From the IMG/VR virus record IMGVR_UViG_3300028805_002025, positions 32,001 to 96,000 of that record: DNA of 64,000 nt; one strand, given 5' to 3'. Within the stretch, counting starts at the first letter, position 1. Each line of letters starts with the position of its first letter. Positions 7,902-52,227 of the stretch are shown in pieces. The stretch is from a virus. Taxonomy: Duplodnaviria; Caudoviricetes. A model generated the notes under the pieces. The model was not told where the DNA came from. It ran no database searches and worked only from the letters and a program-made list of their open reading frames with translations. The position numbers and the translations under genes are program-made.

Positions 7902-8864
7902 TTAGAGTGGGGCAGAGAAAAGTCTTTCCTGGTACTCCTTCCTCAGCTTTGCGAGGATTGTTGTCTCCATCTGTCTGATTCTCTCAGACGTAAGACCAAC
8001 TTCCTCAGCAACCTCAGAGAGTTCGAACTCTCTCTTGATTCCATTGACCTCTATGAGACCGAAACGCATCTGGATGACCTTCTGCTCACGTGGTGTCAGC
8101 ACTTCAAGCAGAGAAGAAACAAGTGCCTTCTGGAACTCTTCCTCAGACTTTGCCTCGAACTCGTTCTCACTTGCACTGGCACGGTTATAGTCCATGATTT
8201 CAGAGTGTCCTGCCGCATTCTCGTCAGTAACCTGGTAATCGTCAACCATTGTAACCTGTATGTCAAGAAGGTCGCTCTTGTCCTTGATGCCTTTCTTGAG
8301 TTTCTGGTTGACAATCTCCTTAAGCTCCTCTGAGCTTGGCATTCTCTCATTCTCCTGCATGAAGTCGCTTGTAGCCTTCGCAACGATACTCCAGGTCTTG
8401 GAGTTGTTGGTCCTATGTACAATGGGCTTTGTATTGTGATGGTATTCCTCAATAGCCCTCTTCACATACCACATGGCGTAGCTTGCAAACTTGAAACCCT
8501 TTCTGTAGTCGAACTTGTCAAGTGCCTCAGACAGACCGATGTTAGCCTCATTCACATAATCCAGAAGCGTGTCTGTTGTAGCCCAGTTCTTGGCTGCTGC
8601 TACACACAGTCTCTGGTTTGAATTGATAATGAGGTTACGAACCTCTTCTATCTTACCTTCAAGATAGATGCAGAGTTCCTTGTCGTTGTCATGCTTTGCA
8701 AGGGCAAGGGTATCCTTGTAGCCTTGCAGTTCTTCAAACATTTTGGTTTCCTCCTCCTTGGTAGGAACATCGAACTTTCGTATGTCGTTGTAGAAACGCT
8801 TGGTGTTCTCACTACGACATACAAGACCCGTGTCCGTTTGCTTCAGATTGATAACTAATGGCAT
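7902..8864 (-). CDS. Sigma70-family RNA polymerase sigma factor
   Basis: Region 2 (SNQRL, EANIGL..A..KFD, FASYAMWYV), region 3, region 4 (LTPREQ.VI..RFGL, LTSERIRQ). Confidence 0.92.
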   Translation of the reverse strand: MPLVINLKQTDTGLVCRSENTKRFYNDIRKFDVPTKEEETKMFEELQGYKDTLALAKHDNDKELCIYLEGKIEEVRNLIINSNQRLCVAAAKNWATTDTLLDYVNEANIGLSEALDKFDYRKGFKFASYAMWYVKRAIEEYHHNTKPIVHRTNNSKTWSIVAKATSDFMQENERMPSSEELKEIVNQKLKKGIKDKSDLLDIQVTMVDDYQVTDENAAGHSEIMDYNRASASENEFEAKSEEEFQKALVSSLLEVLTPREQKVIQMRFGLIEVNGIKREFELSEVAEEVGLTSERIRQMETTILAKLRKEYQERLFSAPL

Positions 8865-11825: not shown

Positions 11826-12902
11826 TTACTTAAAATTGTCCTTTTCACAAAGTTCTCCTAAAAGCTTTTTGTCGTTGTCGTCTAATTTCTTAGGCATTAC
11901 GAGTTTCACAACTCCAATCATATTACCCCTGGTATCTGAATTGAAAAGTGGCATACCATAGCCCTTGAATCTGAGCTGAGTACCATCTTCAGTACCCTGT
12001 GGTATCTTTGCCGTTATCGTCTTACCGTCTATGGTTTCAATTGTTGTCTCACCTCCAAGAATACCCTTCAGCACAGGTATATCAATAGTAAAATACAGGT
12101 CATCACCATTTCTTTCAAACTTCTCGTCTGGCTTCTGTACAACCCTAACAAGAAGGCTTCCTGGTGTACCATTTCCGTGAGGTGGGAAATTACCCAATCC
12201 TACAAACTGGAATATCTGTCCGTCAGCAGCACCTTTATTGATTTTAATTTCAACCTCTGTAGATGCCTGTACAACGCCATGACCGTTACACTTCTTACAT
12301 GGGTTCTCAATGACATAGCCCTTTCCACCACACTGAGGACAGGTGCTTGTCATTCTCATGTTGAATCCACCAAATCCACCAGACTGGAACACCGTACCAG
12401 TACCACCGCATGACTTACAGGTTCTCTTGCGACTATTGGATGTTAAGCCACTTCCACCACATTCGTCACACAGCTCAAAACGGTTGTATTTAATCTTCTT
12501 GGTAACACCATTGAACAACTCTTCGAGAGTAAGTGGGAAAGTAATCTGTATGTTAGTACCCACTACCTGCCTTGGTTTTCTTTCCTCACCAAAGTCGAAA
12601 TCACCAAAGCCACCGAAACCGCCAAAGTGTTTCATTATTTCATCGATGTTCATGCCACCGAAATCTGGACCACCGCTAGCATAGAAATCAAAGTTGGATG
12701 CTGGGTTGTCGTATTGCTTACGTTTCTCGTCATCACCAAGTACCTCATAGGCTTCTGCAACCTCCTTAAACTTTTCCTCGGCTTTCTTATCGCCCTGGTT
12801 ACGGTCTGGATGATACTTGATACTGAGCTTTCTGAAAGCTTTCTTGATATCGTCCTTTGATGCGTCCTTGGATACCCCAAGAATCTTATAGTAATCTTTC
12901 AT
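11826..12902 (-). CDS. dnaJ: Class A J-domain co-chaperone DnaJ
   Basis: [13 protein letters not shown]-rich linker, four CxxCxGxG motifs. Confidence 0.97.
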
Positions 12903-13467: not shown

Positions 13468-13638
13468 CTATGCTGTCTGTGCTGTGAACACTGAGTGACA
13501 ATGAGGACACGTTGCCTCTACATGCCCGTGACCTCCAGAACGATGCGGAGGAGTAGTTACGTCCTCGTAAAAACTACCCCCGCAATGTGGACAATGGACA
13601 TAGAAATGCCCAATGTAGAGATTGCTCTTGTACTTCAT
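13468..13638 (-). CDS. 56-aa Zn-ribbon protein (not in ORF track)
   Basis: [56 protein letters not shown]; TAATG overlap with dnaK stop. Confidence 0.7.
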   Translation of the reverse strand: MKYKSNLYIGHFYVHCPHCGGSFYEDVTTPPHRSGGHGHVEATCPHCHSVFTAQTA

Positions 13639-15542
13639 TAGCTGACCTCCTCGAACTCAGCATCCTGTACCTCTGGTTGCTCAGAAGCTGGCTCTGATGC
13701 AGCTGCCTCCTCAGTTGCCTGTGAAGTCTGTTGGGTCTGCTGCGAAGCATAGATTCTCTGGGAGATTCCATTCCACGTGTCGTTGATGGTCTTCTCCAGT
13801 TCTCCAATCTTGTTGGCATCCTTAGCTGCCACAGCGTCTTTAAGGCTGCTTACAAGCCCATCAAGCTTCGATTTCTCGTCAGTGGTAAGATTACCCTTCT
13901 GCTCCTCGATAAGCTTCTCCTGGGCAAAAATAAGCTGGTCGCCCTTGTTGATGGCATCAGCCACCTCACGCTCCTTCTTGTCAGCCTCAGCATTAGCCTC
14001 AGCCTCAGCCTTCATGCGCTCGATTTCCTCCTTGCTAAGACCAGAGGAAGCCTCGATACGGATAGCCTGCTCCTTGCCTGTAGCCTTGTCCTTTGCAGTA
14101 ACCTTAAGGATACCGTTGGCATCAATATCGAATGATACCTCAATCTGAGGAATACCACGCTTTGCTGGCATGATACCAGTAAGATTGAACTTACCGATGC
14201 TCTTGTTCTGAGCTGCCATAGGACGCTCACCCTGGAGCACGTGGATTGTCACCTCAGTCTGGTTGTCTGCTGCGGTAGAGAACACCTCGCTCTTCTTGCA
14301 TGGAATTGTGGTATTAGCATCAATCAGCTTGGTCATCACACCACCAAGGGTCTCAATACCCAGTGTCAATGGGGTAACGTCAAGCAGCACAATGTCGCCT
14401 ACTCCACCTTCCTTGTTGAGCACAGCACCCTGTACGCAAGCACCAAGTGATACTGCCTCGTCTGGGTTCACTGCCTTAGATGGCTCACGTCCGAAGACAT
14501 CCTTCACAATCTGCTGCAATGCAGGGATACGTGTAGAACCACCCACAAGGATAACCTCGTCAATGTCAGCTGCTGTCAACTTAGCATCCTCCAGTGCCTT
14601 CTTACAAGGCTCGATGTGACGCTTAAGCAGAGAATCACACAACTGCTCGAACTTAGCACGGCTAAGGGTCTTATCCATGTGCTTAGGCTGTCCGTTCACA
14701 GGCATGATATAAGGAAGGTTGATGTCTGTGCTGTTAGATGAAGACAGCTCAATCTTAGCCTTCTCAGCAGCCTCCTTAAGACGCTGCATTGCCATTGGGT
14801 CAGTAGTAAGGTCTGCACCCTCGTCGTTCTTGAACTCCTGTACCAGCCAGTCGATAATAGCCTGGTCGAAGTCATCACCACCAAGGTGGGTATCACCATT
14901 GGTAGAAAGCACCTCGAACACACCGCCACCGAACTCCAAGATGGAGATATCGAATGTACCACCACCAGCATCGAATACAGCAATCTTCATGTCCTTGTCA
15001 GCCTTGTCGATACCGTAGGCAAGGGCAGCAGCCGTAGGCTCGTTCACAATACGCTTAACCTCCAGACCAGCAATCTGTCCAGCCTCCTTGGTGGCTTGAC
15101 GCTGTGAGTCAGAGAAGTAGGCAGGTACTGTGATGACAGCCTCTGTAACCTCCTGTCCAAGGTAATCCTCAGCGGTCTTCTTCATCTTCTGGAGAATCAT
15201 TGCTGAAATCTCCTGTGGCGTATACTTACGTCCATCGATGTCAACACGAGGATAACCACCCTCGTTCACAACATTGAAAGGAACACGGTCAATCTCCTTC
15301 TTACACTGCTCATAGGTCTCACCCATGAAACGCTTGATTGAGTAGACAGTGTTCTTAGGATTGGTAACAGCCTGTCTCTTAGCTGGCTCACCAATCTTAC
15401 GTTCACCATTCTCAGCGAAACCCACAACTGATGGGGTTGTACGCTTACCTTCACTGTTTACAATAACAGTTGGTTCATTTCCTTCATACACCGAAACACA
15501 TGAGTTTGATGTTCCAAGGTCAATTCCAATAATTTTTCCCAT
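13638..15542 (-). CDS. dnaK: Chaperone DnaK (Hsp70)
   Basis: [37 protein letters not shown]; acidic C-terminus DAEFEEV. Confidence 0.99.
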
Positions 15543-21166: not shown

Positions 21167-21637
21167 ATGGGACATGTTTATTTAATAGGCGCACGTGACC
21201 TACCAGGTAGATACAAGATAGGGTCTACCAGGGGTAAGAACGTTAACAAGAGACTGAAGCAGCTCCAGACTGGAAGCTCCTCAGAACTATACATAAAAGA
21301 ATCATATGAAACAGAGCATCCTTTCAAACTTGAAAAAATGCTCCACAATCACTTTGAATCATCAAACCTTATAGGGGAATGGTTCGAGCTGCCCGAAGCC
21401 GATACAAGGGACTTTAGGAGGCTCTGCGAGGACAAATCGAAGGTGATTGAGTCACTAAAAGACAATCCGTTCTATTTTAATGCAAGAATTGTACCCATGA
21501 AGATTGATTTTGAGAAGAAAAACAGCAACGGCAGGGTGTATAGCCAGGAAATGATGAAATCACTGATTGAAGACTTTAATACAAGATTAAGGGAATTTGG
21601 TGATGTGTTAGGAGAGCTTAATCATCCTGTGGAATAA
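21167..21637 (+). CDS. T5orf172-type GIY-YIG nuclease fused to an N-terminal fragment of a T4 gp21-like prohead protease
   Basis: VYLI...YKIG...RLKQLQTG...LEKMLH...GEWF followed by KNSNGRVYS...LGELNHP. Confidence 0.75.
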   Translation: MGHVYLIGARDLPGRYKIGSTRGKNVNKRLKQLQTGSSSELYIKESYETEHPFKLEKMLHNHFESSNLIGEWFELPEADTRDFRRLCEDKSKVIESLKDNPFYFNARIVPMKIDFEKKNSNGRVYSQEMMKSLIEDFNTRLREFGDVLGELNHPVE

Positions 21638-23158: not shown

Positions 23159-23395
23159 TCAATCCCAGAACCACAACTCGTAGTTATTCATCTTCTGATG
23201 GCTAAGTCTTTCTCCATCAAACTCTTTGAACCATTTCTTATTCCTGTAGTACCACTTGAATTTTTTATGCCTTCTCCCGAAAACATGAGGACTGGTTTTC
23301 CTCCATGACTGAACCGAATATGAAGGACGCTTGGTCTTATTGCGCATATTCTTCCAGAACCTCTTAGGTGTGTTAAATTTCTTACCTTTGCTCAT
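23159..23395 (-). CDS. Small basic hypothetical protein
   Basis: ATGA overlap with upstream gene. Confidence 0.55.
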   Translation of the reverse strand: MSKGKKFNTPKRFWKNMRNKTKRPSYSVQSWRKTSPHVFGRRHKKFKWYYRNKKWFKEFDGERLSHQKMNNYELWFWD

Positions 23396-24264
23396 CTTTT
23401 TTTCATTAAACTATTCCTTCTTTGGTTATACGTCATACCATATCTGTCATTAACCTCATATGCTTCCATTTCACCTTTATTAGAATAGTAGTCTTTTTCC
23501 AACTCTTCAAATCCAGGATATTTTTTCAATCTATCTTGTGCGTCTTTAATATATTCATCAATAGTATCTCCGTTTTGAACCCACAACGCAATGTCTACTA
23601 GAGAATTCCTTTCTGGAGAGTCCTTATCATATGATTTAGACATATTGTAGATTTCTTTCCAATCAAGCCCCCTAACTTTTTCTGCTAACTCCATACTTGT
23701 CTCTATTTCTTTTTTAATTTTTTCATATGTCAAAAGATTAGGGGCTGGTGCTCCACCTTCCCAATTCTCATACCATTGAATTACATGTTGTATTTCGTGC
23801 TGAATTGTTGAATTACACTGGCGTTTTAAAAAATCTAACGGTAAAGCTGTCTTATTTTCCCACCATATCAAAGAAGGAGGTATTTGAATAAAATCAGGTC
23901 CTGTTTGTGCAAAATTACCACCATCCCCATATGCTAATAATATTCGTGTATTTCTAAGGTTGGGATACCACTTGTACAAATCGTCATCATCCCACAAATC
24001 AGATAACACTCGTATACTAGAGCTAGGAACTTGTTTGACAGTACCATCAACACCTTCATATTTCCAGTTTCCATCATACCCTATCTCCCAGCCTGTGGTT
24101 TGTTTTATTTTAAGAGGGTCTTCATTTTTTTCCATCATGGTCTTAGCGTTCTGTAATGCCAGCATTTCTGGTGACTCCTCACCTAGGTTAGCAAGACCAC
24201 GCTCCCCTCTAAACGATTCTGAAAACAATCTTTTGAATTTAGATTCTGTAAGTTTAATAATCAT
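23392..24264 (-). CDS. LPD23-like (polyvalent-protein) domain with zincin HExxH motif and LTES leader
   Basis: A..M......I...TGW..G.DG.WKYE, HEIQHVIQ, Y....GE.EA; N-terminus MIIKLTESKFKRLFSE. Confidence 0.7.
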   Translation of the reverse strand: MIIKLTESKFKRLFSESFRGERGLANLGEESPEMLALQNAKTMMEKNEDPLKIKQTTGWEIGYDGNWKYEGVDGTVKQVPSSSIRVLSDLWDDDDLYKWYPNLRNTRILLAYGDGGNFAQTGPDFIQIPPSLIWWENKTALPLDFLKRQCNSTIQHEIQHVIQWYENWEGGAPAPNLLTYEKIKKEIETSMELAEKVRGLDWKEIYNMSKSYDKDSPERNSLVDIALWVQNGDTIDEYIKDAQDRLKKYPGFEELEKDYYSNKGEMEAYEVNDRYGMTYNQRRNSLMKKR

Positions 24265-34812: not shown

Positions 34813-35170
34813 TAGAATTACTATTTGCCTCAAAATAATTTTGTACTGTATTTATTAGCCAATTACTACTACTAACAAACGCTCCATCTAAAAACATTGT
34901 TACATACCAATATTCTAATGGCAAACCAATCATAATCATTGGTGTTAATATCACACTTGGTAATATCCATAAATTAAGTGCTGACATTCCAAATCCTAAC
35001 CACCACCCAGAACATATAAAACAAGAGAGCATTTCATCCAACTGTGGATGAATCTTTTTAGCTATTTCGTGCATTTTAACAAAACAATGAAATGGACCGT
35101 TTGCATAAATTATAGTATTTGCAATACCATAACAAACAATCATATAAATAACTAATATTAACCAGTACAT
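34805..35170 (-). CDS. DUF1360-like membrane protein
   Basis: Three TM segments with LSCFICSGWW (CxxC) motif. Confidence 0.6.
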   Translation of the reverse strand: MYWLILVIYMIVCYGIANTIIYANGPFHCFVKMHEIAKKIHPQLDEMLSCFICSGWWLGFGMSALNLWILPSVILTPMIMIGLPLEYWYVTMFLDGAFVSSSNWLINTVQNYFEANSNSNE

Positions 35171-36060
35171 ATTTTAATTAATTCATTTATTTTATTTTCT
35201 AACTTGTCATTATAATTTATATAAAACAAATTCACATTATTCTCAGTACATAATTTCAATTTATTTCTATCTAAATTTTTTCTATACTCAAACATTTTTT
35301 CTCCACCAAAAAATTCTATTGGCTCAAAATGCTGTATACCTTGACATTCTATTGCTATATCATATTTTGGTAAATAAAAATCTAAGCTTTGTTTACCTAA
35401 CCACGATAAAATTTCCTTCTTACAATGCCATATGTATTCTAAATTATTCTTTTCCAATTCTCTAGCAACTTTTTCTTCCAAAATACTGTTTTGACAATGT
35501 GGACATCCAACACCTCTCATATGATGCATAGGATAAGTATAAAATTCTCCATGTTTAGAACAGATAACACATACCTTTGTTTTCTGATTTATATATACTG
35601 TTTTACTATAATCATATTTCTCACCATACAATTCTTTACAAATTGAAATAAATTCATCTGTCGTATAATTATGTCTCAAAGAACATTTTTTACATCCATA
35701 ACCCTTTAAATGATGTTGTGGAGTTTGCCAGAACTCTCCATGAATAGGACAAATTATGCATACTTTAGTTTGATTATCCACATAATTTACATTAGAATAA
35801 TCATATCTATTACCGTGAATTTCCTTTGCTTTATTTATAAATTCTTCTAATGTATACTTAGTGCTCCTATGTGAACAATGAGGACAATTCTGACCATGTA
35901 AATGGTCTAAAGGACGTTGAAAAAAGCTTCCATGAATTTTACAAACGATTTCAACTGGTTTTTGAGTTGATTCATATATGACTTTCGAATAATCATATTT
36001 ATCTCCATGTACATTTTTAGCTTGTTCAACAAACTCCTCAGTTGTCTTTCTTTTCGCCAT
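35158..36060 (-). CDS. Zn-ribbon-repeat (DUF723-like) putative homing endonuclease
   Basis: Three HG.KYDYS.V.Y...C..HG.F.Q.P..H..G..C..C modules plus DFYLP.YDIAIECQG.QH; overlaps both neighbours. Confidence 0.82.
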   Translation of the reverse strand: MAKRKTTEEFVEQAKNVHGDKYDYSKVIYESTQKPVEIVCKIHGSFFQRPLDHLHGQNCPHCSHRSTKYTLEEFINKAKEIHGNRYDYSNVNYVDNQTKVCIICPIHGEFWQTPQHHLKGYGCKKCSLRHNYTTDEFISICKELYGEKYDYSKTVYINQKTKVCVICSKHGEFYTYPMHHMRGVGCPHCQNSILEEKVARELEKNNLEYIWHCKKEILSWLGKQSLDFYLPKYDIAIECQGIQHFEPIEFFGGEKMFEYRKNLDRNKLKLCTENNVNLFYINYNDKLENKINELIKICTG

Positions 36061-38551: not shown

Positions 38552-39367
38552 TTAGTTCATTAACTTCCTAGCCTTATTGACCATATCGTTGAACTCTTTG
38601 CCCTCCTGGACTCTGAATGAAGGTGTCGTCCTGTTTGCCTCTGCGCTCTTGTAGCCCCAAAGCTGCTTGATTCTATCCTTCTGTTCGTTTACGAGGGTCA
38701 TGTTGACCTTCTTGGTTACTTTAGGTTCTCTTTCGTTCCACTCAACAAGATATTCATTGTCTGCCGTGTCTCTCATAATGAACTTCTTGCCCTCAACTTT
38801 CAGCTCATCTGGAATCTTTGACATCATATGTCCTTCAGATATGAACTGGGTCTTGAATGTAAGTCTCTTAATTTTCTTGTTCTCGTACATAGTGCTGTCG
38901 TTGTCTTCTATGTCCTTTTTCTTTAGTTCTCTACCAGTAAGTCCAATCTCAGCTGCCGTATCCTTGCCCTGCTTTGCTGCCTCGGCATGGTCTTTAGCTG
39001 CATCATAAATCTTACCGTTGTCGTCGAATGTAGCGTTACCAAACTCATCGTTCTTGTGCTTGTCCTCTGCATCCTTTGATACGTAGCCCTTCATCTGGGA
39101 CTTCGTTCTCTCCATAAATGGCTTGTTGATACTGTCATAAGTAAGGTCATGCATCCCCTTGTTATCAGTTGCTGAGATACCCCCACCTGGCTTCTGGTTC
39201 TTCTTTCCGACACCACCATCATACTTTTCGGTTTCCTTCTTGATGTCAGAATAGGCTTCATCATTGATTTTTTTCGTCTCCTTATCACCAAAAACAACTG
39301 GTTTAAACTCGTTGGTGCTTTCCTTGATGACTTTTCTCAATTCACCCACATTAATTCTAGTTACCAT
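38552..39367 (-). CDS. Hypothetical, possible head-internal/scaffold protein
   Basis: N-terminus RINVGELRKVIKES resembles the LTES leader; charged composition. Confidence 0.6.
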   Translation of the reverse strand: MVTRINVGELRKVIKESTNEFKPVVFGDKETKKINDEAYSDIKKETEKYDGGVGKKNQKPGGGISATDNKGMHDLTYDSINKPFMERTKSQMKGYVSKDAEDKHKNDEFGNATFDDNGKIYDAAKDHAEAAKQGKDTAAEIGLTGRELKKKDIEDNDSTMYENKKIKRLTFKTQFISEGHMMSKIPDELKVEGKKFIMRDTADNEYLVEWNEREPKVTKKVNMTLVNEQKDRIKQLWGYKSAEANRTTPSFRVQEGKEFNDMVNKARKLMN

Positions 39368-39378
39368 AATTTTATAAT

Positions 39379-39546
39379 TTATTGATTATTAAATTGATTT
39401 ATATACAATCCCCTTAACATCTGCTCAAACATGAGCCGTGTCATTTTACCACCGTCTGGTTTTTGCTTCTTGCGCTCCGTCTGAAGCTGCTCATCAATCT
39501 CCTGTATCTTCTCGATGGTCTCCTTATTTGCCTCGTAGTCTATCAT
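39379..39546 (-). CDS. 55-aa hypothetical protein (not in ORF track)
   Basis: MIDYEANKETIEKIQEIDEQLQ...; ATATTTAT overlaps its ATG. Confidence 0.55.
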   Translation of the reverse strand: MIDYEANKETIEKIQEIDEQLQTERKKQKPDGGKMTRLMFEQMLRGLYINQFNNQ

Positions 39547-39563
39547 AAATATCTGTTACTTTC

Positions 39564-40262
39564 TCATTTTGATGGTAAAAGGTCAACTTTTTGTAAGGCA
39601 TATTTGACAACATCATGTCTAAATTCCTTGGTCATCCTATTACCACTGGCTTTTAGCTGCGCTATACGCATCTTAATAATATTCATAAACTGTGCCGCAT
39701 TCTCACCATCATTCATAACCAAGATGTGATTAACTGTATCATTCACAGTACTGATTCTACTTATATTCACCAAATTGCGATACAGCTCCTGTTTTAAATT
39801 TGTAGGAAGTACGGATGATATCTCCCTAAGCTCTTCACTACTGAATAGGCGTTCCTCTCCATTCATTACCCTGCTTGTAAGCTCCCTGTCGGATAACCTG
39901 TTTAGATATCCTGGATTAAGACCTTTCTTTTCAATCCCATATTTCAAGATGTGATGAATGTTATCCCAAGGATTATCCCACACACCCTGTATGTCAAACC
40001 TGTCAAAACCAAGCAACTGGAAAGCTGCTTCTTCAAGGTACGATGACAATGAACCAAACAGTCTTCCAGTCGAAAATATCTGCCTATTAGGGTGATTATC
40101 ATATTCCTTATTGTGAGCAAGTTGCTCTATCCTATCCCTATCTCTAGCAGCTATTTCTTTTCTCTTTGCAGTGCCGTATACAGGATAATTAAGAACATTT
40201 TCAACAGATTCCCTTATAATCCTGTGTAACGCACTTTCAGTAAGTATTATTTTTTTACTCAT
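39564..40262 (-). CDS. LTES-leader protein
   Basis: MSKKIILTESALHRIIRESVENVL then unrelated body. Confidence 0.75.
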   Translation of the reverse strand: MSKKIILTESALHRIIRESVENVLNYPVYGTAKRKEIAARDRDRIEQLAHNKEYDNHPNRQIFSTGRLFGSLSSYLEEAAFQLLGFDRFDIQGVWDNPWDNIHHILKYGIEKKGLNPGYLNRLSDRELTSRVMNGEERLFSSEELREISSVLPTNLKQELYRNLVNISRISTVNDTVNHILVMNDGENAAQFMNIIKMRIAQLKASGNRMTKEFRHDVVKYALQKVDLLPSK

Positions 40263-40525
40263 TTCTTTATTACAGACTCACCAATAGGATTAACGGAGAT
40301 TGAATGATTATTTCCACCATCTCTACTAATACCTGGTCTTGGGTCAAGGCTTTTAACAACCTCATCTGTTGGGTCGCCAACTGGAGAAGGTCTTCTCATC
40401 ATAGGAAATACAGGGCGATTCACATCACCAGAAGAACTAGCATCTGTCTCTGCAAGTATCTTCTGTACGGATTCCTTCACAAGTCTATGAAGTTCGCTTT
40501 CTGTAAGTCTAATTATTTGCTTCAT
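40259..40525 (-). CDS. LTES-leader small protein
   Basis: MKQIIRLTESELHRLVKESVQKILAE; ATGA overlaps on both sides. Confidence 0.75.
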   Translation of the reverse strand: MKQIIRLTESELHRLVKESVQKILAETDASSSGDVNRPVFPMMRRPSPVGDPTDEVVKSLDPRPGISRDGGNNHSISVNPIGESVIKK

Positions 40526-40770
40526 CCTTTATGCCCTACTGGTTTTTCAGATTTATTCATTGCAATATCTTCTCTACCATAAGTTGGGTCATCGTCATCT
40601 ACCAACCCCTTAGCTGGATATGCAATACCAAAAGAAGAGTCAGCTGAACCATCAGCATTTACTCCAAAAGTGGTATTAGCACCGCCATCAAATTCTTTAA
40701 GAATATTTTTAACAGATTCCTTAACGATTCTATGAAGGTCACTCTCTGTAAGTCTAATTATCTGTTTCAT
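40522..40770 (-). CDS. LTES-leader small protein
   Basis: MKQIIRLTESDLHRIVKESVKNILKE. Confidence 0.75.
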   Translation of the reverse strand: MKQIIRLTESDLHRIVKESVKNILKEFDGGANTTFGVNADGSADSSFGIAYPAKGLVDDDDPTYGREDIAMNKSEKPVGHKG

Positions 40771-40790
40771 ATTATGTTATACTTTTTGTG

Positions 40791-41360
40791 TTATGCACCT
40801 GCTGCTTTTCTCCTGCTTCCTGCTGCTGGTGTACCTGCTGCTGTAGGAGTTGTAGCGGTTGTAGTTGCTGCACCTGGAACTGCTGTTCCTGCTGCTGGTG
40901 TACCTGCTGCTGTAGGAGTTGCTGTAGCTGCTGGCTGTGTTCCAGCCTGCTTCTTAGCTGCCTTAGCTGCCCAAGGGTCTTGAACTGATGTATTCATTGG
41001 AGTACCCTTAGCAACCTGGTTAGCCATCTTTGTATAACCAGCTGCGGCTCTACCAAGCATTGTACTTATACTACCAAGCTGTTTAGCAATGGTTTGGTTC
41101 TTTGTCTGCTGAGCAATTGTTTTCATCTGTACAAGAGCATTTTGTGCCTCCTGTGCATAACTGTTAAACGAAGATGCCCAGTTACCAGCCTTATATGTCT
41201 GTCCAACATTAAAGTTCCAGTTCTTAGCACCCTGCCAAACATTCTTAAGACCGCCCCAAACACCTTCTCCAAGTTCATTCTCGGTAAGATACGTCTTAAC
41301 AGCATCCTCAACAAGCATATGAAGGTCTTGTTCTGTCAATTGAATAGACTTGTTATTCAT
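40791..41360 (-). CDS. LTES-leader protein with Ala/Thr/Pro-rich tail
   Basis: MNNKSIQLTEQDLHMLVEDAVKTYLTE; repeated TPTAAGTPAAG. Confidence 0.75.
   Translation of the reverse strand: MNNKSIQLTEQDLHMLVEDAVKTYLTENELGEGVWGGLKNVWQGAKNWNFNVGQTYKAGNWASSFNSYAQEAQNALVQMKTIAQQTKNQTIAKQLGSISTMLGRAAAGYTKMANQVAKGTPMNTSVQDPWAAKAAKKQAGTQPAATATPTAAGTPAAGTAVPGAATTTATTPTAAGTPAAGSRRKAAGA
40818..40921. repeat. Direct repeat encoding TPTAAGTPAAG
   Basis: TCCTGCTGCTGGTGTACCTGCTGCTGTAGGAGTTG occurs twice, 69 bp apart. Confidence 0.8.
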
Positions 41361-41375
41361 AGTTTTATTTCGTGT

Positions 41376-41576
41376 TTAAGCATTATCTTCAGTTCCACCA
41401 GTTACATCCTCATCGTCGTCAGACTCCTCTTCAGATTCTTCTTCCTCCACAGGAACGATGTATTTCATGTTCTTGACTTCCTTAACCTTTGATACTGGGA
41501 AATGGTCAACGTCACCCAACATTGTGCTGTTATAATCAAATCCGTAAAACTCAAGTGTTCTAACTTTCTTTTTCAT
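41376..41576 (-). CDS. Small acidic-tail protein
   Basis: ORF in operon. Confidence 0.6.
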   Translation of the reverse strand: MKKKVRTLEFYGFDYNSTMLGDVDHFPVSKVKEVKNMKYIVPVEEEESEEESDDDEDVTGGTEDNA

Positions 41577-41593
41577 TGTTATGTAATTTTTTA

Positions 41594-41959
41594 TTAATTA
41601 TTTTCGAATAATTTCTGATATAGTCTCTTTATCTTCTTTTTAAAGTCTTTCTTCGGAACTCTATAGGAGAGATAATATCTTGACTCCATTTCTCCAGTTT
41701 CTTCACTGTGAGGCTCATCAATTCTCTCCTTCATGGTGATGACACTTTCATCACGAAGCAATTTCCTCAGCTTACCACTGGTGAATCCCCTTATGGCTAG
41801 TTTCTGGCTAGGTTTTGCATTTATAGGGTCTTCCAGGAGGTCAACTATGAATTTCTTTATTTCCCTAAAGAAGTCGAAGAATGGTAGTTTCTCCTCTGAT
41901 TCATCAAGGAGTGACTTAATCTCTGGTATCCTGTCTTCCTTTATGTATATTACCTTCAC
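41594..41959 (-). CDS. Hypothetical protein with degenerate leader
   Basis: MKVIYIKEDRIPEIKSLLDE. Confidence 0.65.
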   Translation of the reverse strand: MKVIYIKEDRIPEIKSLLDESEEKLPFFDFFREIKKFIVDLLEDPINAKPSQKLAIRGFTSGKLRKLLRDESVITMKERIDEPHSEETGEMESRYYLSYRVPKKDFKKKIKRLYQKLFENN

Positions 41960-42171
41960 CTAACAACCCCTCCCTTCCAAGAACTGCTTCTGTTGAACAG
42001 GGTCTTGTAAAGGTCTTCTATGGCATCAGCCACAATTTCCTTTACCTTCCTCTCAAACTCCTTAGTGTCATATGAAGACGATATTTTATTAGCAACGATT
42101 GAATTAACTTCATTCTTGCTTAACTCCTCTGTAATTATCTGGTCTATCCTATTTTCTGAAATTGTCCTCAT
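41956..42171 (-). CDS. Hypothetical protein with degenerate leader
   Basis: MRTISENRIDQIITE; first gene after ATATTTAT at 42189. Confidence 0.65.
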   Translation of the reverse strand: MRTISENRIDQIITEELSKNEVNSIVANKISSSYDTKEFERKVKEIVADAIEDLYKTLFNRSSSWKGGVVR

Positions 42172-42188
42172 ATGTACATTATTTTCTA

Positions 42189-42197
42189 TATAAATAT
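42189..42197 (-). promoter_or_regulatory. ATATTTAT phage-specific (late-type) promoter candidate heading the LTES cluster
   Basis: Motif recurs a short distance upstream of about 14 starts in the window. Confidence 0.6.
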
Positions 42198-42234
42198 CAC
42201 TAAATACAAAAAAAGGACGCTATCTCTAGCATCC

Positions 42235-43221
42235 TTAATTATCTCTGTTTGCAGCCCTATTCAATTTTTCCATTATACGATTACAATCGGTATACACTTC
42301 ATATGGAAAATCATATTCTTTGTCTGAATAATATATGATATCTATACCATGCTCTTTACAAAGTTCTTTTTTAACACTATCGTTATTTTGCTGACGTTTT
42401 AGGTAATCTTCTCCACCAAAATATTTTATTGGTTTAAAATGTTGTAAACCTTGACATTCTATAGCAATATTGTATTCTGGTAAATAAAAATCTAAACTTT
42501 TAACACTTTTACCATTCACAAGCCAATCGAAAACTTTCTGTTGTTCAAAAACTATCTTATTTTCCTCAAGTAGTTTACTAATATGTATCTCCATCTTGGA
42601 TAGTTTGCAATATGGGCATCCTTCTTTATGTATTAAATGATTATGAGGTGTCACATAAAAGCTCTTTCCACACTTTTTGCAAGTAACTTTAATTGGAATT
42701 TTATTACCTAAATATTTACACTCAGTATAATCATACATATTTCCAAAAAGCTTTATACTATCAGAAATAAACTGTTCTTTACTCTTCCTTTGTATAATAT
42801 GATTACTTTCACTAAAACATTTTGGACAACCATTTGATTTTAAATGATTATATGGCGTTTGATGAAAAATTCCGTGAATTGGGCATATGATATCAACTTT
42901 TGTATCACAGTTAACATATATTACTTTGGAGTAATCATACCTGTCCCCAAACTTTTCTACTGCTCTTTTTACGAATTCTTCTTTACCAAGAGAATTATAT
43001 CCTACTCCTCGTTTTTTTCTAGGTTTAGAACTACTACATTTCTTACACCCATGACCATCTAAATGATGTGACGGTCTCTGCCAAAACTCACCATGTTCTG
43101 GACATATGATACATACATTGGTTTTACTATTGACATAATTAACCTTTGAATAATCATACTTATTTCCATGAATTTGTTTAGATAATCTAATAAATTCTTC
43201 CTGTTTTATGGGTTTAGACAT
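42235..43221 (-). CDS. Zn-ribbon-repeat (DUF723-like) putative homing endonuclease
   Basis: Three YDYS...C..HG.F.Q.P..H...GC..C modules plus DFYLPEYNIAIECQGLQH. Confidence 0.82.
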   Translation of the reverse strand: MSKPIKQEEFIRLSKQIHGNKYDYSKVNYVNSKTNVCIICPEHGEFWQRPSHHLDGHGCKKCSSSKPRKKRGVGYNSLGKEEFVKRAVEKFGDRYDYSKVIYVNCDTKVDIICPIHGIFHQTPYNHLKSNGCPKCFSESNHIIQRKSKEQFISDSIKLFGNMYDYTECKYLGNKIPIKVTCKKCGKSFYVTPHNHLIHKEGCPYCKLSKMEIHISKLLEENKIVFEQQKVFDWLVNGKSVKSLDFYLPEYNIAIECQGLQHFKPIKYFGGEDYLKRQQNNDSVKKELCKEHGIDIIYYSDKEYDFPYEVYTDCNRIMEKLNRAANRDN

Positions 43222-44248: not shown

Positions 44249-44971
44249 TTAAGTAAATAATTCTTCGGTATTATTGAGCAACATTGCATTTGAGCGTAAC
44301 TTTCTTATTGCATTTATTTTTATTTGTCTAGCACGTTCACTGCTAATACCCATCTTATTTCCTATCTCTACGAAGTTAAGCTTCTCGTTTCCGTTAAGTC
44401 CAAAGTAGTAGTTTATTACTGACTCCTCCCTGGTGGTGAGTGTCGGCATTATGCTGTTAAGTGCGTCGTTCTGATTTCTACAAACCTCACGCCTCCTCTC
44501 ATCCGATGAGTTGGAGAACGAAGTCTCCATCAGTGAGACCGATTCATCCTCAGAATCGGATGCTGTGTTTTCATATGAATTACCATATATATCTTCCTGT
44601 TCTACCTCCACTGAGAACATCAGTTTCTTCTTCTTGATAGCATCCAGCATGGCATGCCTTATCCACCATACAGCATATGAAATAAACTTTACATCCTTTT
44701 CTTCATCAAACTTGGTGATGGCGTATATCAGAGCCATATTCCCTTCGGATATAAGGTCTGATATTGGTACGCCTTTTCCAGTATATTTCTTAGCCATGTC
44801 GAAAACAAACCTAAGATTGCTTTCTAATATTTCATTTCTGGCTTTTATATTTCCATGTTTGGATAATCTTAGGAGACGCTTCTCCTTAGCCCTTGACATA
44901 GGCTTGGTACTCTTCAAATCATCAAAATATATTTTGACAGTATCCGTAAAATCATTTGCATATTGATTCAT
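44249..44971 (-). CDS. Second sigma70-family sigma factor (short, no clear region 3)
   Basis: SNLRFV, DLISEGN, KFD, FISYAVWWIR, LTTRE..VI..YFGL, ISSERARQI. Confidence 0.9.
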   Translation of the reverse strand: MNQYANDFTDTVKIYFDDLKSTKPMSRAKEKRLLRLSKHGNIKARNEILESNLRFVFDMAKKYTGKGVPISDLISEGNMALIYAITKFDEEKDVKFISYAVWWIRHAMLDAIKKKKLMFSVEVEQEDIYGNSYENTASDSEDESVSLMETSFSNSSDERRREVCRNQNDALNSIMPTLTTREESVINYYFGLNGNEKLNFVEIGNKMGISSERARQIKINAIRKLRSNAMLLNNTEELFT

Positions 44972-50465: not shown

Positions 50466-50855
50466 TTATACTTTCTTTATTGTAACGTCAACGTACCAGT
50501 CCTCTGGTCTAATAGCTGTCATAGGGTGCAGAATCTGGATATATTGCTTCGGTATCCTGTCTGTAAGGGCTTTAATAAACTCATGCCTGTATATTGGCTT
50601 ATGTGTATAGAAATAGCCCATAGGATAGCATCTATGGGTAATACTGTCTTCTTTTTCTATATCATTAGAAGAGTCATGCGCCCAACCACTTTCCTTCTCT
50701 ACCTCCCTAAGTATCTCCTCCAGCTTCTTGTTGCCTTCCTCGCGGAACTTGTCAACTTCATCCTGGTTCATGAACAGGTCATACTGTCCATCTGGAAATA
50801 CACCATTAGCTTCAAATAACCTTCGTAACTGTGATTCGTTTAATCTGATTTTCAT
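50466..50855 (-). CDS. LTES-like leader protein
   Basis: MKIRLNESQLRRLFE. Confidence 0.7.
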   Translation of the reverse strand: MKIRLNESQLRRLFEANGVFPDGQYDLFMNQDEVDKFREEGNKKLEEILREVEKESGWAHDSSNDIEKEDSITHRCYPMGYFYTHKPIYRHEFIKALTDRIPKQYIQILHPMTAIRPEDWYVDVTIKKV

Positions 50856-50856
50856 A

Positions 50857-52227
50857 TTAATATCTCTTTGATATATAATCCATTCCAGAATTAGACTTTC
50901 TGCCTATCTGTTTGTTCATAGCTCTAAGAGCCTCCCTGTTAGCCTTGTACTGTTCTGGAGTATCTGCATCTTCCCAGTTAGGGTCGTAGTTTTCAAAGTG
51001 ACCATTTCCAATCTGTGCGTCCCTTATAATCTGTTTAAGCATCTTTGCAGCATCCTTCCAGCCATTATTCATATAATCGCCTGGATAAATTCTAATTCTG
51101 CCACCAGCTCTTGTAAGAACCTTAATTTTTTCTGGCGTGTACATACCATAAGCACCGTTGAATGGGATAATTATATAACCCCTACCATTAAGCTTTATAT
51201 CACCAGTAAGTCCATATGGAGTACCTTCTTTGTCCATAAGTGGCCACCTTTCTGACTCACCCTGTACCTCTAGTGCATGATGATAAGCGTCATTAGCCTG
51301 CTGTATGAGCTGCTGTATCTTGATTGTAGGGCCTGCTGCCATTTCAGTTATAATCTTCATTGCAGCTTCCTTCACGACCTGCTTAAGCTCAGATTCTGTA
51401 AGAGTGAGTTTATTGGAATATCTGCTTGCCATTTCCTGTAGTGTAGCAAGGTCTTCTTGGTATCTCTGCTTGGCAATACTGATGAAGTCCTCTGGTGCTA
51501 TGTTTATGTCATTTACAGCTCTTGTCAATCTGTCATTGATGTAAATAATCTTTTCACCATTGATAGTAGCAGCAATCCAGAGAATAGAGTTTGACTCAAA
51601 GTTCTTGTACCTCATGTGAAGCTCAGCTTCCCTTTTGATAAACTCTTGTATTCTCTCTTCCTCTACACCCATGTCTCTAAGTGCCTTAACGCCACTGACA
51701 GGAGCTTTTGCTTTAAGATATGGCTTAACCTGTTCTGGAGTAAGCTCTTGAATAATATGACCATCTGTACCAACAGCATATGTAACACTCTTTATTTTAG
51801 CACCATATGTATTCTGTGCATTGTATGAGTGAGACTTCAAAGCATCGTTTCCACCATTGTAAAGGTCTGGACCGTTACTTCCCCAGTTAGAACCAGTTTT
51901 ATAACTCTCTTTGTCCTGCATTGGGGCAATTCCGTATTCTGCTCTAAGGTCGTTGAATGCTTTTTTATATTCACCATACTTCTTATTTACGGTGTCCCTA
52001 TGATTATACTGCATGTTGTAACTGGTAATCTTCACAAGAGCACCAATATCCTCGCCAAATACACTATAGTCATCATATTTTTTCATCCTGTTTGTTGCAG
52101 GATTCTTCCTAGATACGGTAGGAACTGCAAGATTAGCTCCAGATACATATCCTATAGTTATGAACTTACCTCTACCAATCTGGTCTAGCAAGTCAAAAAA
52201 CTTATCAGAACTTTCAATTCTTCTCAT
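50857..52227 (-). CDS. Two-part hypothetical protein with internal LTES motif
   Basis: Internal NKLTLTESELKQVVKEAAMKIITE at about 51345-51415. Confidence 0.75.
   Translation of the reverse strand: MRRIESSDKFFDLLDQIGRGKFITIGYVSGANLAVPTVSRKNPATNRMKKYDDYSVFGEDIGALVKITSYNMQYNHRDTVNKKYGEYKKAFNDLRAEYGIAPMQDKESYKTGSNWGSNGPDLYNGGNDALKSHSYNAQNTYGAKIKSVTYAVGTDGHIIQELTPEQVKPYLKAKAPVSGVKALRDMGVEEERIQEFIKREAELHMRYKNFESNSILWIAATINGEKIIYINDRLTRAVNDINIAPEDFISIAKQRYQEDLATLQEMASRYSNKLTLTESELKQVVKEAAMKIITEMAAGPTIKIQQLIQQANDAYHHALEVQGESERWPLMDKEGTPYGLTGDIKLNGRGYIIIPFNGAYGMYTPEKIKVLTRAGGRIRIYPGDYMNNGWKDAAKMLKQIIRDAQIGNGHFENYDPNWEDADTPEQYKANREALRAMNKQIGRKSNSGMDYISKRY

Follow-up and report, generated by a model that had tools for sequence, protein, structure and literature searches.

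Four tandem genes on the minus strand of a 64,000-nt stretch of phage DNA (the window; bases 32001-96000 of the 241,681-bp IMG/VR record IMGVR_UViG_3300028805_002025) encode proteins with dissimilar bodies that share an N-terminal peptide module, 25 residues long in its consensus form. The tag is real, large in scale and undescribed. Its carriers are likely a lineage of uncultured T4-like jumbo myoviruses, with rumen Prevotella as the likely host because the matches in bacterial genomes come almost all from rumen Prevotellaceae. The module may be a portable head-assembly tag or cleavable propeptide of these phages, a reading given a little less than an even chance here. The source record is that of a jumbo myovirus, as judged by its tail sheath, tape-measure and baseplate genes. 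It is about 75% complete (CheckV), and the full genome may exceed 241,681 bp, since a 99%-identical protein sits on a 427,959-bp contig.

The consensus of the module is M-K-(K/Q)-(I/L)-I-R-L-T-E-S-D-L-H-R-I-V-K-E-S-V-x-(R/K)-(I/V)-(L/I)-x-E. Across 241 distinct aligned copies the stretch from the Lys after the start Met through the final Glu is near-invariant, and immediately past that Glu the column information drops from 3.9 to 0.6 bits; as the aligned sequences were collected for their similarity to the query, the degree of conservation is overstated, though the sharpness of the edge is not. The first-pass annotation, made from the letters of the window, had noted that many leaders end in [IL]xE, and this is borne out in the form [IV][LI]xE, with Glu at P1 in 228 of the 241 copies (95%) and L or I at P3 in 233 (97%), as a pattern of sequence only. 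Third codon positions vary freely (the Glu is GAA 54 times and GAG 51 times, and Ser is written by TCN and AGY codons alike), so selection acts on the peptide and not on DNA or RNA; a conserved DNA or RNA element was rejected on the same ground. The copies within this genome have about half of their synonymous codons in common and share no identical DNA run longer than 19 nt. They are old and not kept alike by recent gene conversion, which was likewise rejected, and the leader shuffling suggested earlier shows no sign here in the form of recent recombination.

A strict pattern scan gave eight N-terminal copies for the whole genome, six of them within the window. For scoring, a hidden Markov model (HMM) of the module was trained on metagenomic proteins only, with this genome left out, and the noise level was set by its best score in ten shuffles of all open reading frames of the genome, 13.8 bits. 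The tandem genes between 39564 and 41360 score from 15.1 to 65.8 bits, which upholds the shared leader on unrelated proteins from which the analysis started. An internal copy proposed near 51345-51415 is also real, at 17.3 bits, and is now placed at nt 51340-51402 (residues 276-296 of the 456-aa protein). The leader at 50855 reaches only 8.4 bits by itself, below noise, yet its orthologue in the related genome G002 (BLASTP 7e-18) bears the canonical module and adjoins the prohead protease gene of that genome, so the window gene is a shortened true copy. The leader at 24264 has the same shortened shape and is plausibly genuine, although its 5.7 bits are not significant alone. Weaker versions had been listed at 39367 (5.3 bits; hhalign P 0.034) and at 41959, 42171 and 7357 (2 bits or less); none is significant by HMM or by profile-profile comparison, and these are not confirmed.

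The bodies behind the window copies have little in common. In the 189-aa protein the module is followed by a Q/N/A/K-rich helical part and then an Ala/Thr/Pro-rich tail, with homologues of this body in loci L017, L050 and L044. The body of the 82-aa protein is rich in Gly, Asp and Ser. The gene at 40259-40525 starts in an ATGA overlap with the stop of the preceding gene, and the body encoded at 39564-40262 is predicted to be helical, in a single-sequence fold of low confidence (predicted local distance difference test score, pLDDT, 47). The N-domain of the 456-aa protein is modelled at a pLDDT of about 80 and its module as a low-confidence helix; searches with this fold by Foldseek (PDB, BFVD) and by VIA-align wide returned only uncharacterised phage proteins and small beta-barrel likenesses (Z at most 6.3).

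Beyond this genome, a word-index search found the module in 282 small proteins, relatives of the 82-aa protein, and in 668 longer ones. An exhaustive profile search of 1.84 billion cluster representatives gave 6,043 matches at E <=0.001, of which 1,537 at <=1e-10. In 105 of 126 library representatives the module begins no later than residue 10. BLAST clustering of the bodies from 341 proteins gave at least 120 unrelated clusters, 90 of them singletons, in agreement with the dissimilarity first noticed in the window; the bodies have a median length of 98 residues and are mostly acidic. Scans of the window module proteins and 30 relatives against Pfam and PHROGs recognised only LPD23 (in the gene at 23392-24264), an S-adenosylmethionine (SAM) lyase (locus L120), WG repeats and DUF3008. 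For the module itself neither Pfam nor PHROGs gave a matching family, and no paper was found in the literature with the peptide string. IMG/VR matches are metagenome records of 4 kb to 413 kb, among which those of about 95 kb are fragments, 30-48% complete; judging by IMG sample numbers, we take the carrier records to be rumen samples. The three complete carrier genomes (349-413 kb) hold 19 (G001), 11 (G002) and 18 (G003) copies. The SAM lyase protein (L120:7499-8344) lies on a 252-kb contig binned as a Bacteroidales metagenome-assembled genome; its neighbours, by eye, include a large helicase, a MazG-like and a release-factor-like gene, and the contig may be a mis-binned jumbo phage.

Relatives of the window genome connect the module with head assembly. 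Each of the three complete carriers has genes for a prohead protease of the T4 type (Peptidase_S77, 46-85 bits) and for a capsid protein of the gp23 type (194-217 bits). Peptidase_S77 is present in six of eight large records, and a capsid gene lies on four of five short fragments that were picked solely for their module genes. In G001 and G002 the gene immediately downstream of the protease gene is a module gene; in G008 one lies about 1 kb off. The G002 protease gene is at L122:1399-2097 and its tagged neighbour, with I-I-N-E as the expected cut site, at L122:996-1394. By hand count 4 of the 19 copies in G001 and 3 of the 11 in G002 lie within 10 kb of head genes, so that the association is partial. 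The G001 protease gene (L124:247-2073) is unusual in encoding 608 aa, against 232-237 aa in relatives, and its Peptidase_S77 match is split by an insert resembling an intein or homing endonuclease. In the relatives, scaffold proteins (L135:129-1622 and counterparts in L136-L139; 475-526 aa) have two N-terminal helices ending in (I/L)-L-x-E, directly followed by a long acidic tract; these helices look like the module by eye, and with the HMM they score 2 bits or less, which is not significant.

Expression signals also associate module genes with virion genes. The motif GATATTTATA sits 22-33 nt before the start codon in 18 of the 29 genes that have it. In this genome it precedes sheath, tape-measure and fibre genes, a gene for a 1358-aa structural protein and five free-standing module genes, and in G002 it also stands ahead of the protease and scaffold genes. 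Given the genes it accompanies, GATATTTATA is probably a late promoter. The first-pass annotation had placed module genes mostly in motif-led operons, and indeed ATATTTAT leads the operon in the window; the arrangement of hairpin plus motif also precedes the first gene in eight syntenic loci of other phages. As the next strong terminator on the same strand comes only at 37008-36974, the four module genes and their conserved neighbours form one unit. Nine phages have this cluster in synteny, as a cassette locus that is hypervariable. Their common gene order is 41956, 41594, (41376), one to four module genes, 39379, 38552 and 37691 (window start coordinates), and the module genes between the conserved flanks differ in number and body from phage to phage.

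Leaders of this kind have precedents. The T4 prohead protease gp21 cuts at (L/I)-x-E, and proteases of the gp21 family cut after Glu (PMC5694885, PMC9026906). Asp in place of that Glu prevents processing in T4 (PMC9026906). The first 10 residues of the T4 internal protein IPIII are enough for head targeting, and internal proteins of T-even phages are little conserved between related phages but keep leaders like the capsid-targeting sequence (CTS) (PMC9026906). The CTS of IPI, IPII and IPIII, which gp21 removes, resembles the module as an N-terminal leader common to otherwise unrelated small proteins and ending in (L/I)-x-E (PMC9026906), on proteins little conserved among related phages; the relatives, too, have a T4-type protease and capsid protein. 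It differs in being 10 rather than 25 residues long. The module also occurs internally and several times per protein, is borne by far more cargo families and is carried by transposons in bacteria, and no T4-like phage in the search of GenBank phages has it. Ejection and inner-body proteins of the giant phages phiKZ, 201phi2-1 and SPN3US have cleavable propeptides; these phages, too, are jumbo myoviruses, and their protease is related to gp21 and cleaves behind Glu. In SPN3US diverged paralogues of ejection proteins have identical cleavable N-termini, and one giant-phage propeptide may hold several cleavage sites (PMC5694885). In contrast to the module, a short tag on unrelated bodies, giant-phage propeptides often exceed 100 residues, occur in paralogous families and are cut at A/S/G-x-E sites.

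The head-tag reading is favoured because the protein-level edge at the Glu is sharp and matches the gp21 rule, because the relatives have S77 and Gp23 and module genes that adjoin the protease gene, because the promoter-like motif is shared with head and tail genes, because the cassette locus is hypervariable, and because the bodies are diverse, with SPN3US as a precedent. LPD23 and SAM lyase bodies are of the kinds expected for delivered counter-defence proteins. Tagged proteins would be produced late, alongside head proteins, and the short strand and amphipathic helix of the module would dock them into the scaffolding core of the prohead. The T4-type prohead protease would then cleave after the conserved Glu of [IV]-[LI]-x-E, and the released bodies, most of them small, acidic or disordered and a few enzyme-like, would stay inside the head and pass into the host along with the DNA. 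Internal copies often follow a hydrophobic residue, any residue, Glu-Ser and two basic residues (P0376, P0383, P0404, P0369); this Glu-Ser context could be a second cleavage site at which the same protease may release each unit of module plus body. Docking, cleavage, packaging and ejection are steps proposed from the sequences, and the complex modelled from the module and the G002 scaffold protein speaks neither for binding nor against it.

A number of observations weigh against a head tag. No Peptidase_S77 prohead protease or capsid gene was found on this incomplete contig (best S77 scores 15 and 12.5 bits, cut-off 27). The capsid-targeting idea of the first-pass annotation gains from the relatives, from protease adjacency, from the shared promoter-like motif and from the (L/I)-x-E ending, and lacks its protease and capsid in the contig itself. 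A gp21-like fragment had been claimed at 21506-21637; it is the source of the 12.5-bit score and was rejected as the tail of a T5orf172/MUG113 (GIY-YIG-like) protein at window 21167-21637. None of the 18 copies in G003 lies within 10 kb of head genes. The module at 39564-40262 has no terminal Glu and ends N-V-L-N-Y, and (L/I)-x-E is a common tripeptide in helices. The capsid protein of the relatives does not reveal the P3 preference of the protease: it has G-S-F-E-T where the cleavage site of T4 gp23 aligns, and I/L-x-E-A occurs 11 residues upstream of that. A second, internal copy occurs in 49 of 236 proteins, a few of which have three or four, and in the 456-aa family the module stands at about residue 275, in the same place in 118 of 120 homologues and behind a folded domain, unlike the T4 tag. 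Searched by tblastn with the module, 50,697 GenBank phage records contained nothing similar even at E 10, so no cultured phage among them is a carrier. Finally, 18 of 31 bacterial loci have the module gene tail to tail with a transposase of the IS1595 family, in Prevotella genomes that offer no capsid. Neither such bacterial copies nor several copies within one protein had been expected at the outset.

The bacterial copies include four passengers of IS1595-family elements in Prevotella genomes. All four have perfect terminal inverted repeats (25 of 25 bases match in L112, 29 of 29 bases in L098) and a module gene tail to tail with the transposase, and L112 also shows an 8-bp target duplication (ATTAATTA). 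In L116 a module start and the outside of the insertion sequence (IS) seemed to form an inverted repeat, which was dropped because it has no continuation into a module reading frame. Like other IS1595-family IS with passengers, these are elements with inverted repeats, a DDE-type transposase and, in one, a duplicated target; they differ from the copies in the window genome, which have neither transposase nor repeats, and the literature searched describes no such passenger. Three Prevotella/Segatella isolates have one module copy each. Among viral loci, a transposase or a 30-residue remnant directly follows the module gene in 7 or 8 of 78 (L055 and L056 are near-identical). No transposase traces were found in this genome, whose module genes do not qualify as IS1595 passengers. 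A transposon can explain how a phage gene reached host chromosomes, and it supports rival readings too.

Among these, it is unlikely that the module is a docking or oligomerisation helix independent of the capsid, which would stay uncleaved and bind a conserved hub such as the phage Hsp70/DnaJ pair, a sigma factor, RNA polymerase or itself. The helix is predicted by fold models to be amphipathic, and a PDB-sequence profile search returned designed helical repeat proteins alone, so that its sole likeness there is to idealised designed helices; an ESM Atlas look-up gave no usable match. Internal and repeated copies fit a binding module, the window appears by eye to encode DnaK and DnaJ homologues, and the basic-hydrophobic start K-K-I-I-R-L resembles Hsp70 client motifs. 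Such a helix leaves unexplained why conservation stops sharply at the Glu in an (L/I)-x-E context, as well as the adjacency to protease genes and the promoter-like motif in common with head genes. A ribbon-helix-helix domain was also considered: no Pfam family of this type was hit at E <=0.01, and it is countered by the end of conservation after one helix and by the many bodies that are Gly/Asp-rich right behind. Another view, an improbable one, takes the module for the junction motif of a polymorphic-effector system, at the border of a constant part and exchangeable C-terminal cassettes, with the short genes as displaced or stand-alone cassettes. The 456-aa family has just this build of constant N-domain, module and variable tail; in phage L076 an N-domain and the module are encoded by separate genes, which are fused in bacterial loci; and the cassette locus is hypervariable. 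In two Prevotella isolates, moreover, the module DNA is 90% identical over 92 nt and the bodies differ. The likeness is to the VENN motif of CdiA and the Rhs core border, where a conserved motif also separates constant and variable C-terminal parts and free-standing cassettes start with the motif. Here, in contrast, no toxin/immunity pairs were recognised, the context is a phage late operon, the short genes have start codons and promoter-like motifs of their own, and the copies in this genome lack DNA-level homology, with only about half of their synonymous codons shared. Recent cassette exchange is thus not visible in this genome, given identical DNA runs of 19 nt at most. A junction and a head tag can coexist.

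That the module belongs to an accessory protein of IS1595-family transposons, with the phage copies as decayed insertions of selfish DNA, is quite improbable. The tail-to-tail partnership has been kept in Prevotella although the transposases have diverged to 54% identity, and to it are added the complete elements with perfect repeats and one duplication and the viral loci that retain a transposase or remnant. On the other hand, in nine phages the window cluster forms a stable operon, kept in synteny and led by a promoter-like motif of its own, and this genome is free of transposase traces; the isolates have one copy per genome versus 11-19 per phage; and more than 100 unrelated bodies go unexplained. 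Very improbable indeed is an ordinary fast-evolving paralogue family, in which the N-terminal helix would be merely the most constrained part and have no tag function. Some bodies do fall into recurring groups, for example those continuing I-G-D-T-P-x-G-Q, but 120 unrelated clusters among 341 bodies, with 90 singletons, do not look like paralogues. Nor do the unrelated known domains attached to the module (LPD23, SAM lyase, WG repeats) or its placement N-terminally, internally and near the C-terminus.

If the head tag works as proposed, it would mark the protein arsenal that a large, uncultured group of jumbo phages of gut and rumen injects, made up of thousands of small uncharacterised proteins, and the T4 head-targeting principle would be scaled up and diversified far past the T-even phages. 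It could then serve as a ready-made packaging tag for engineering Bacteroidota phages, and the transposon link would give such cargo genes a route of spread. A bolder combination, distinctly unlikely, is that one 25-residue label loads more than 100 unrelated effector families into heads for injection and that an IS1595-family transposon moves label-plus-cargo cassettes between phage and Prevotella; this would be modular effector delivery on a scale described for no phage. Host-borne copies might then turn the label to their own use, acting as decoys or slipping into capsids as contraband cargo. Should the module be a docking helix instead, it would still define a large uncharacterised family of about 6,000 clusters with one testable handle.

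Table 1. Module genes, neighbouring features of the window and transposon-borne copies in Prevotella genomes (window coordinates unless a locus is named).
Feature	Position (strand)	Module	Remarks
Transcription-unit start	42186..42236 (-)		Terminator-like hairpin 42236-42213, then GTGATATTTATATAG, 26 nt ahead of the ATG at 42171
First operon gene, 71 aa	41956..42171 (-)	N-terminus only loosely module-like	Conserved flank; homologues in 8 loci
Flank gene, 121 aa	41594..41959 (-)	Profile against module P 0.27	Conserved; relatives start with a short M-K-h-I-H-I-N-E-S form
Small acidic gene, 66 aa	41376..41576 (-)		Kept in 3 of 8 syntenic loci
Module gene, 189 aa	40791..41360 (-)	Divergent; residues 4-29, nt 41274-41351; 15.1 bits
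Module gene, 82 aa	40522..40770 (-)	Canonical; nt 40693-40770; 65.8 bits
Module gene, 88 aa	40259..40525 (-)	Canonical; nt 40448-40525; 57.2 bits
Module gene, 232 aa	39564..40262 (-)	nt 40188-40262; 35.5 bits
55-aa gene	39379..39546 (-)		Ends the variable stretch; homologues in 8 loci
Flank gene, 271 aa	38552..39367 (-)	At best degenerate	N-terminus I-N-V-G-E-L-R-K-V-I-K-E-S; homologues in 8 loci
456-aa protein	50857..52227 (-)	Internal	Conserved N-domain (~275 aa), module, variable tail
129-aa gene	50466..50855 (-)	Shortened; nt 50811-50855; 8.4 bits
290-aa gene	23392..24264 (-)	Shortened; nt 24217-24264	LPD23 polyvalent-protein domain; promoter-like motif 24 nt upstream
IS1595-family element	L112:3894-6333	Passenger gene	2.4-2.5 kb
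IS1595-family element	L098:771-3264	Passenger gene	2.4-2.5 kb
IS1595-family element	L101:3939-6451	Passenger gene	2.4-2.5 kb
IS1595-family element	L116:4087-6508	Passenger gene	2.4-2.5 kb

Besides an amidase, the window encodes two sigma-70-family proteins with regions 2 and 4 (7902-8864 and 44249-44971), which are candidate readers of the GATATTTATA promoter-like motif. A DnaJ-like gene (11826-12902) and an Hsp70/DnaK-like gene (13638-15542), both recognised by eye, could supply chaperones for tagged proteins. A multi-copy family of genes for proteins of about 300-330 aa with repeated H-G-D-K-Y-D-Y-S-K-V motifs is scattered across the genome, with members in the window at 42235-43221 and 35158-36060 and elsewhere at genome positions 102904-103824, 134606-135562 and 176739-177731. 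The one member scanned matched DUF723 and a treble-clef zinc-finger family, and DNA resembling this family is annotated as homing endonuclease in other phages.

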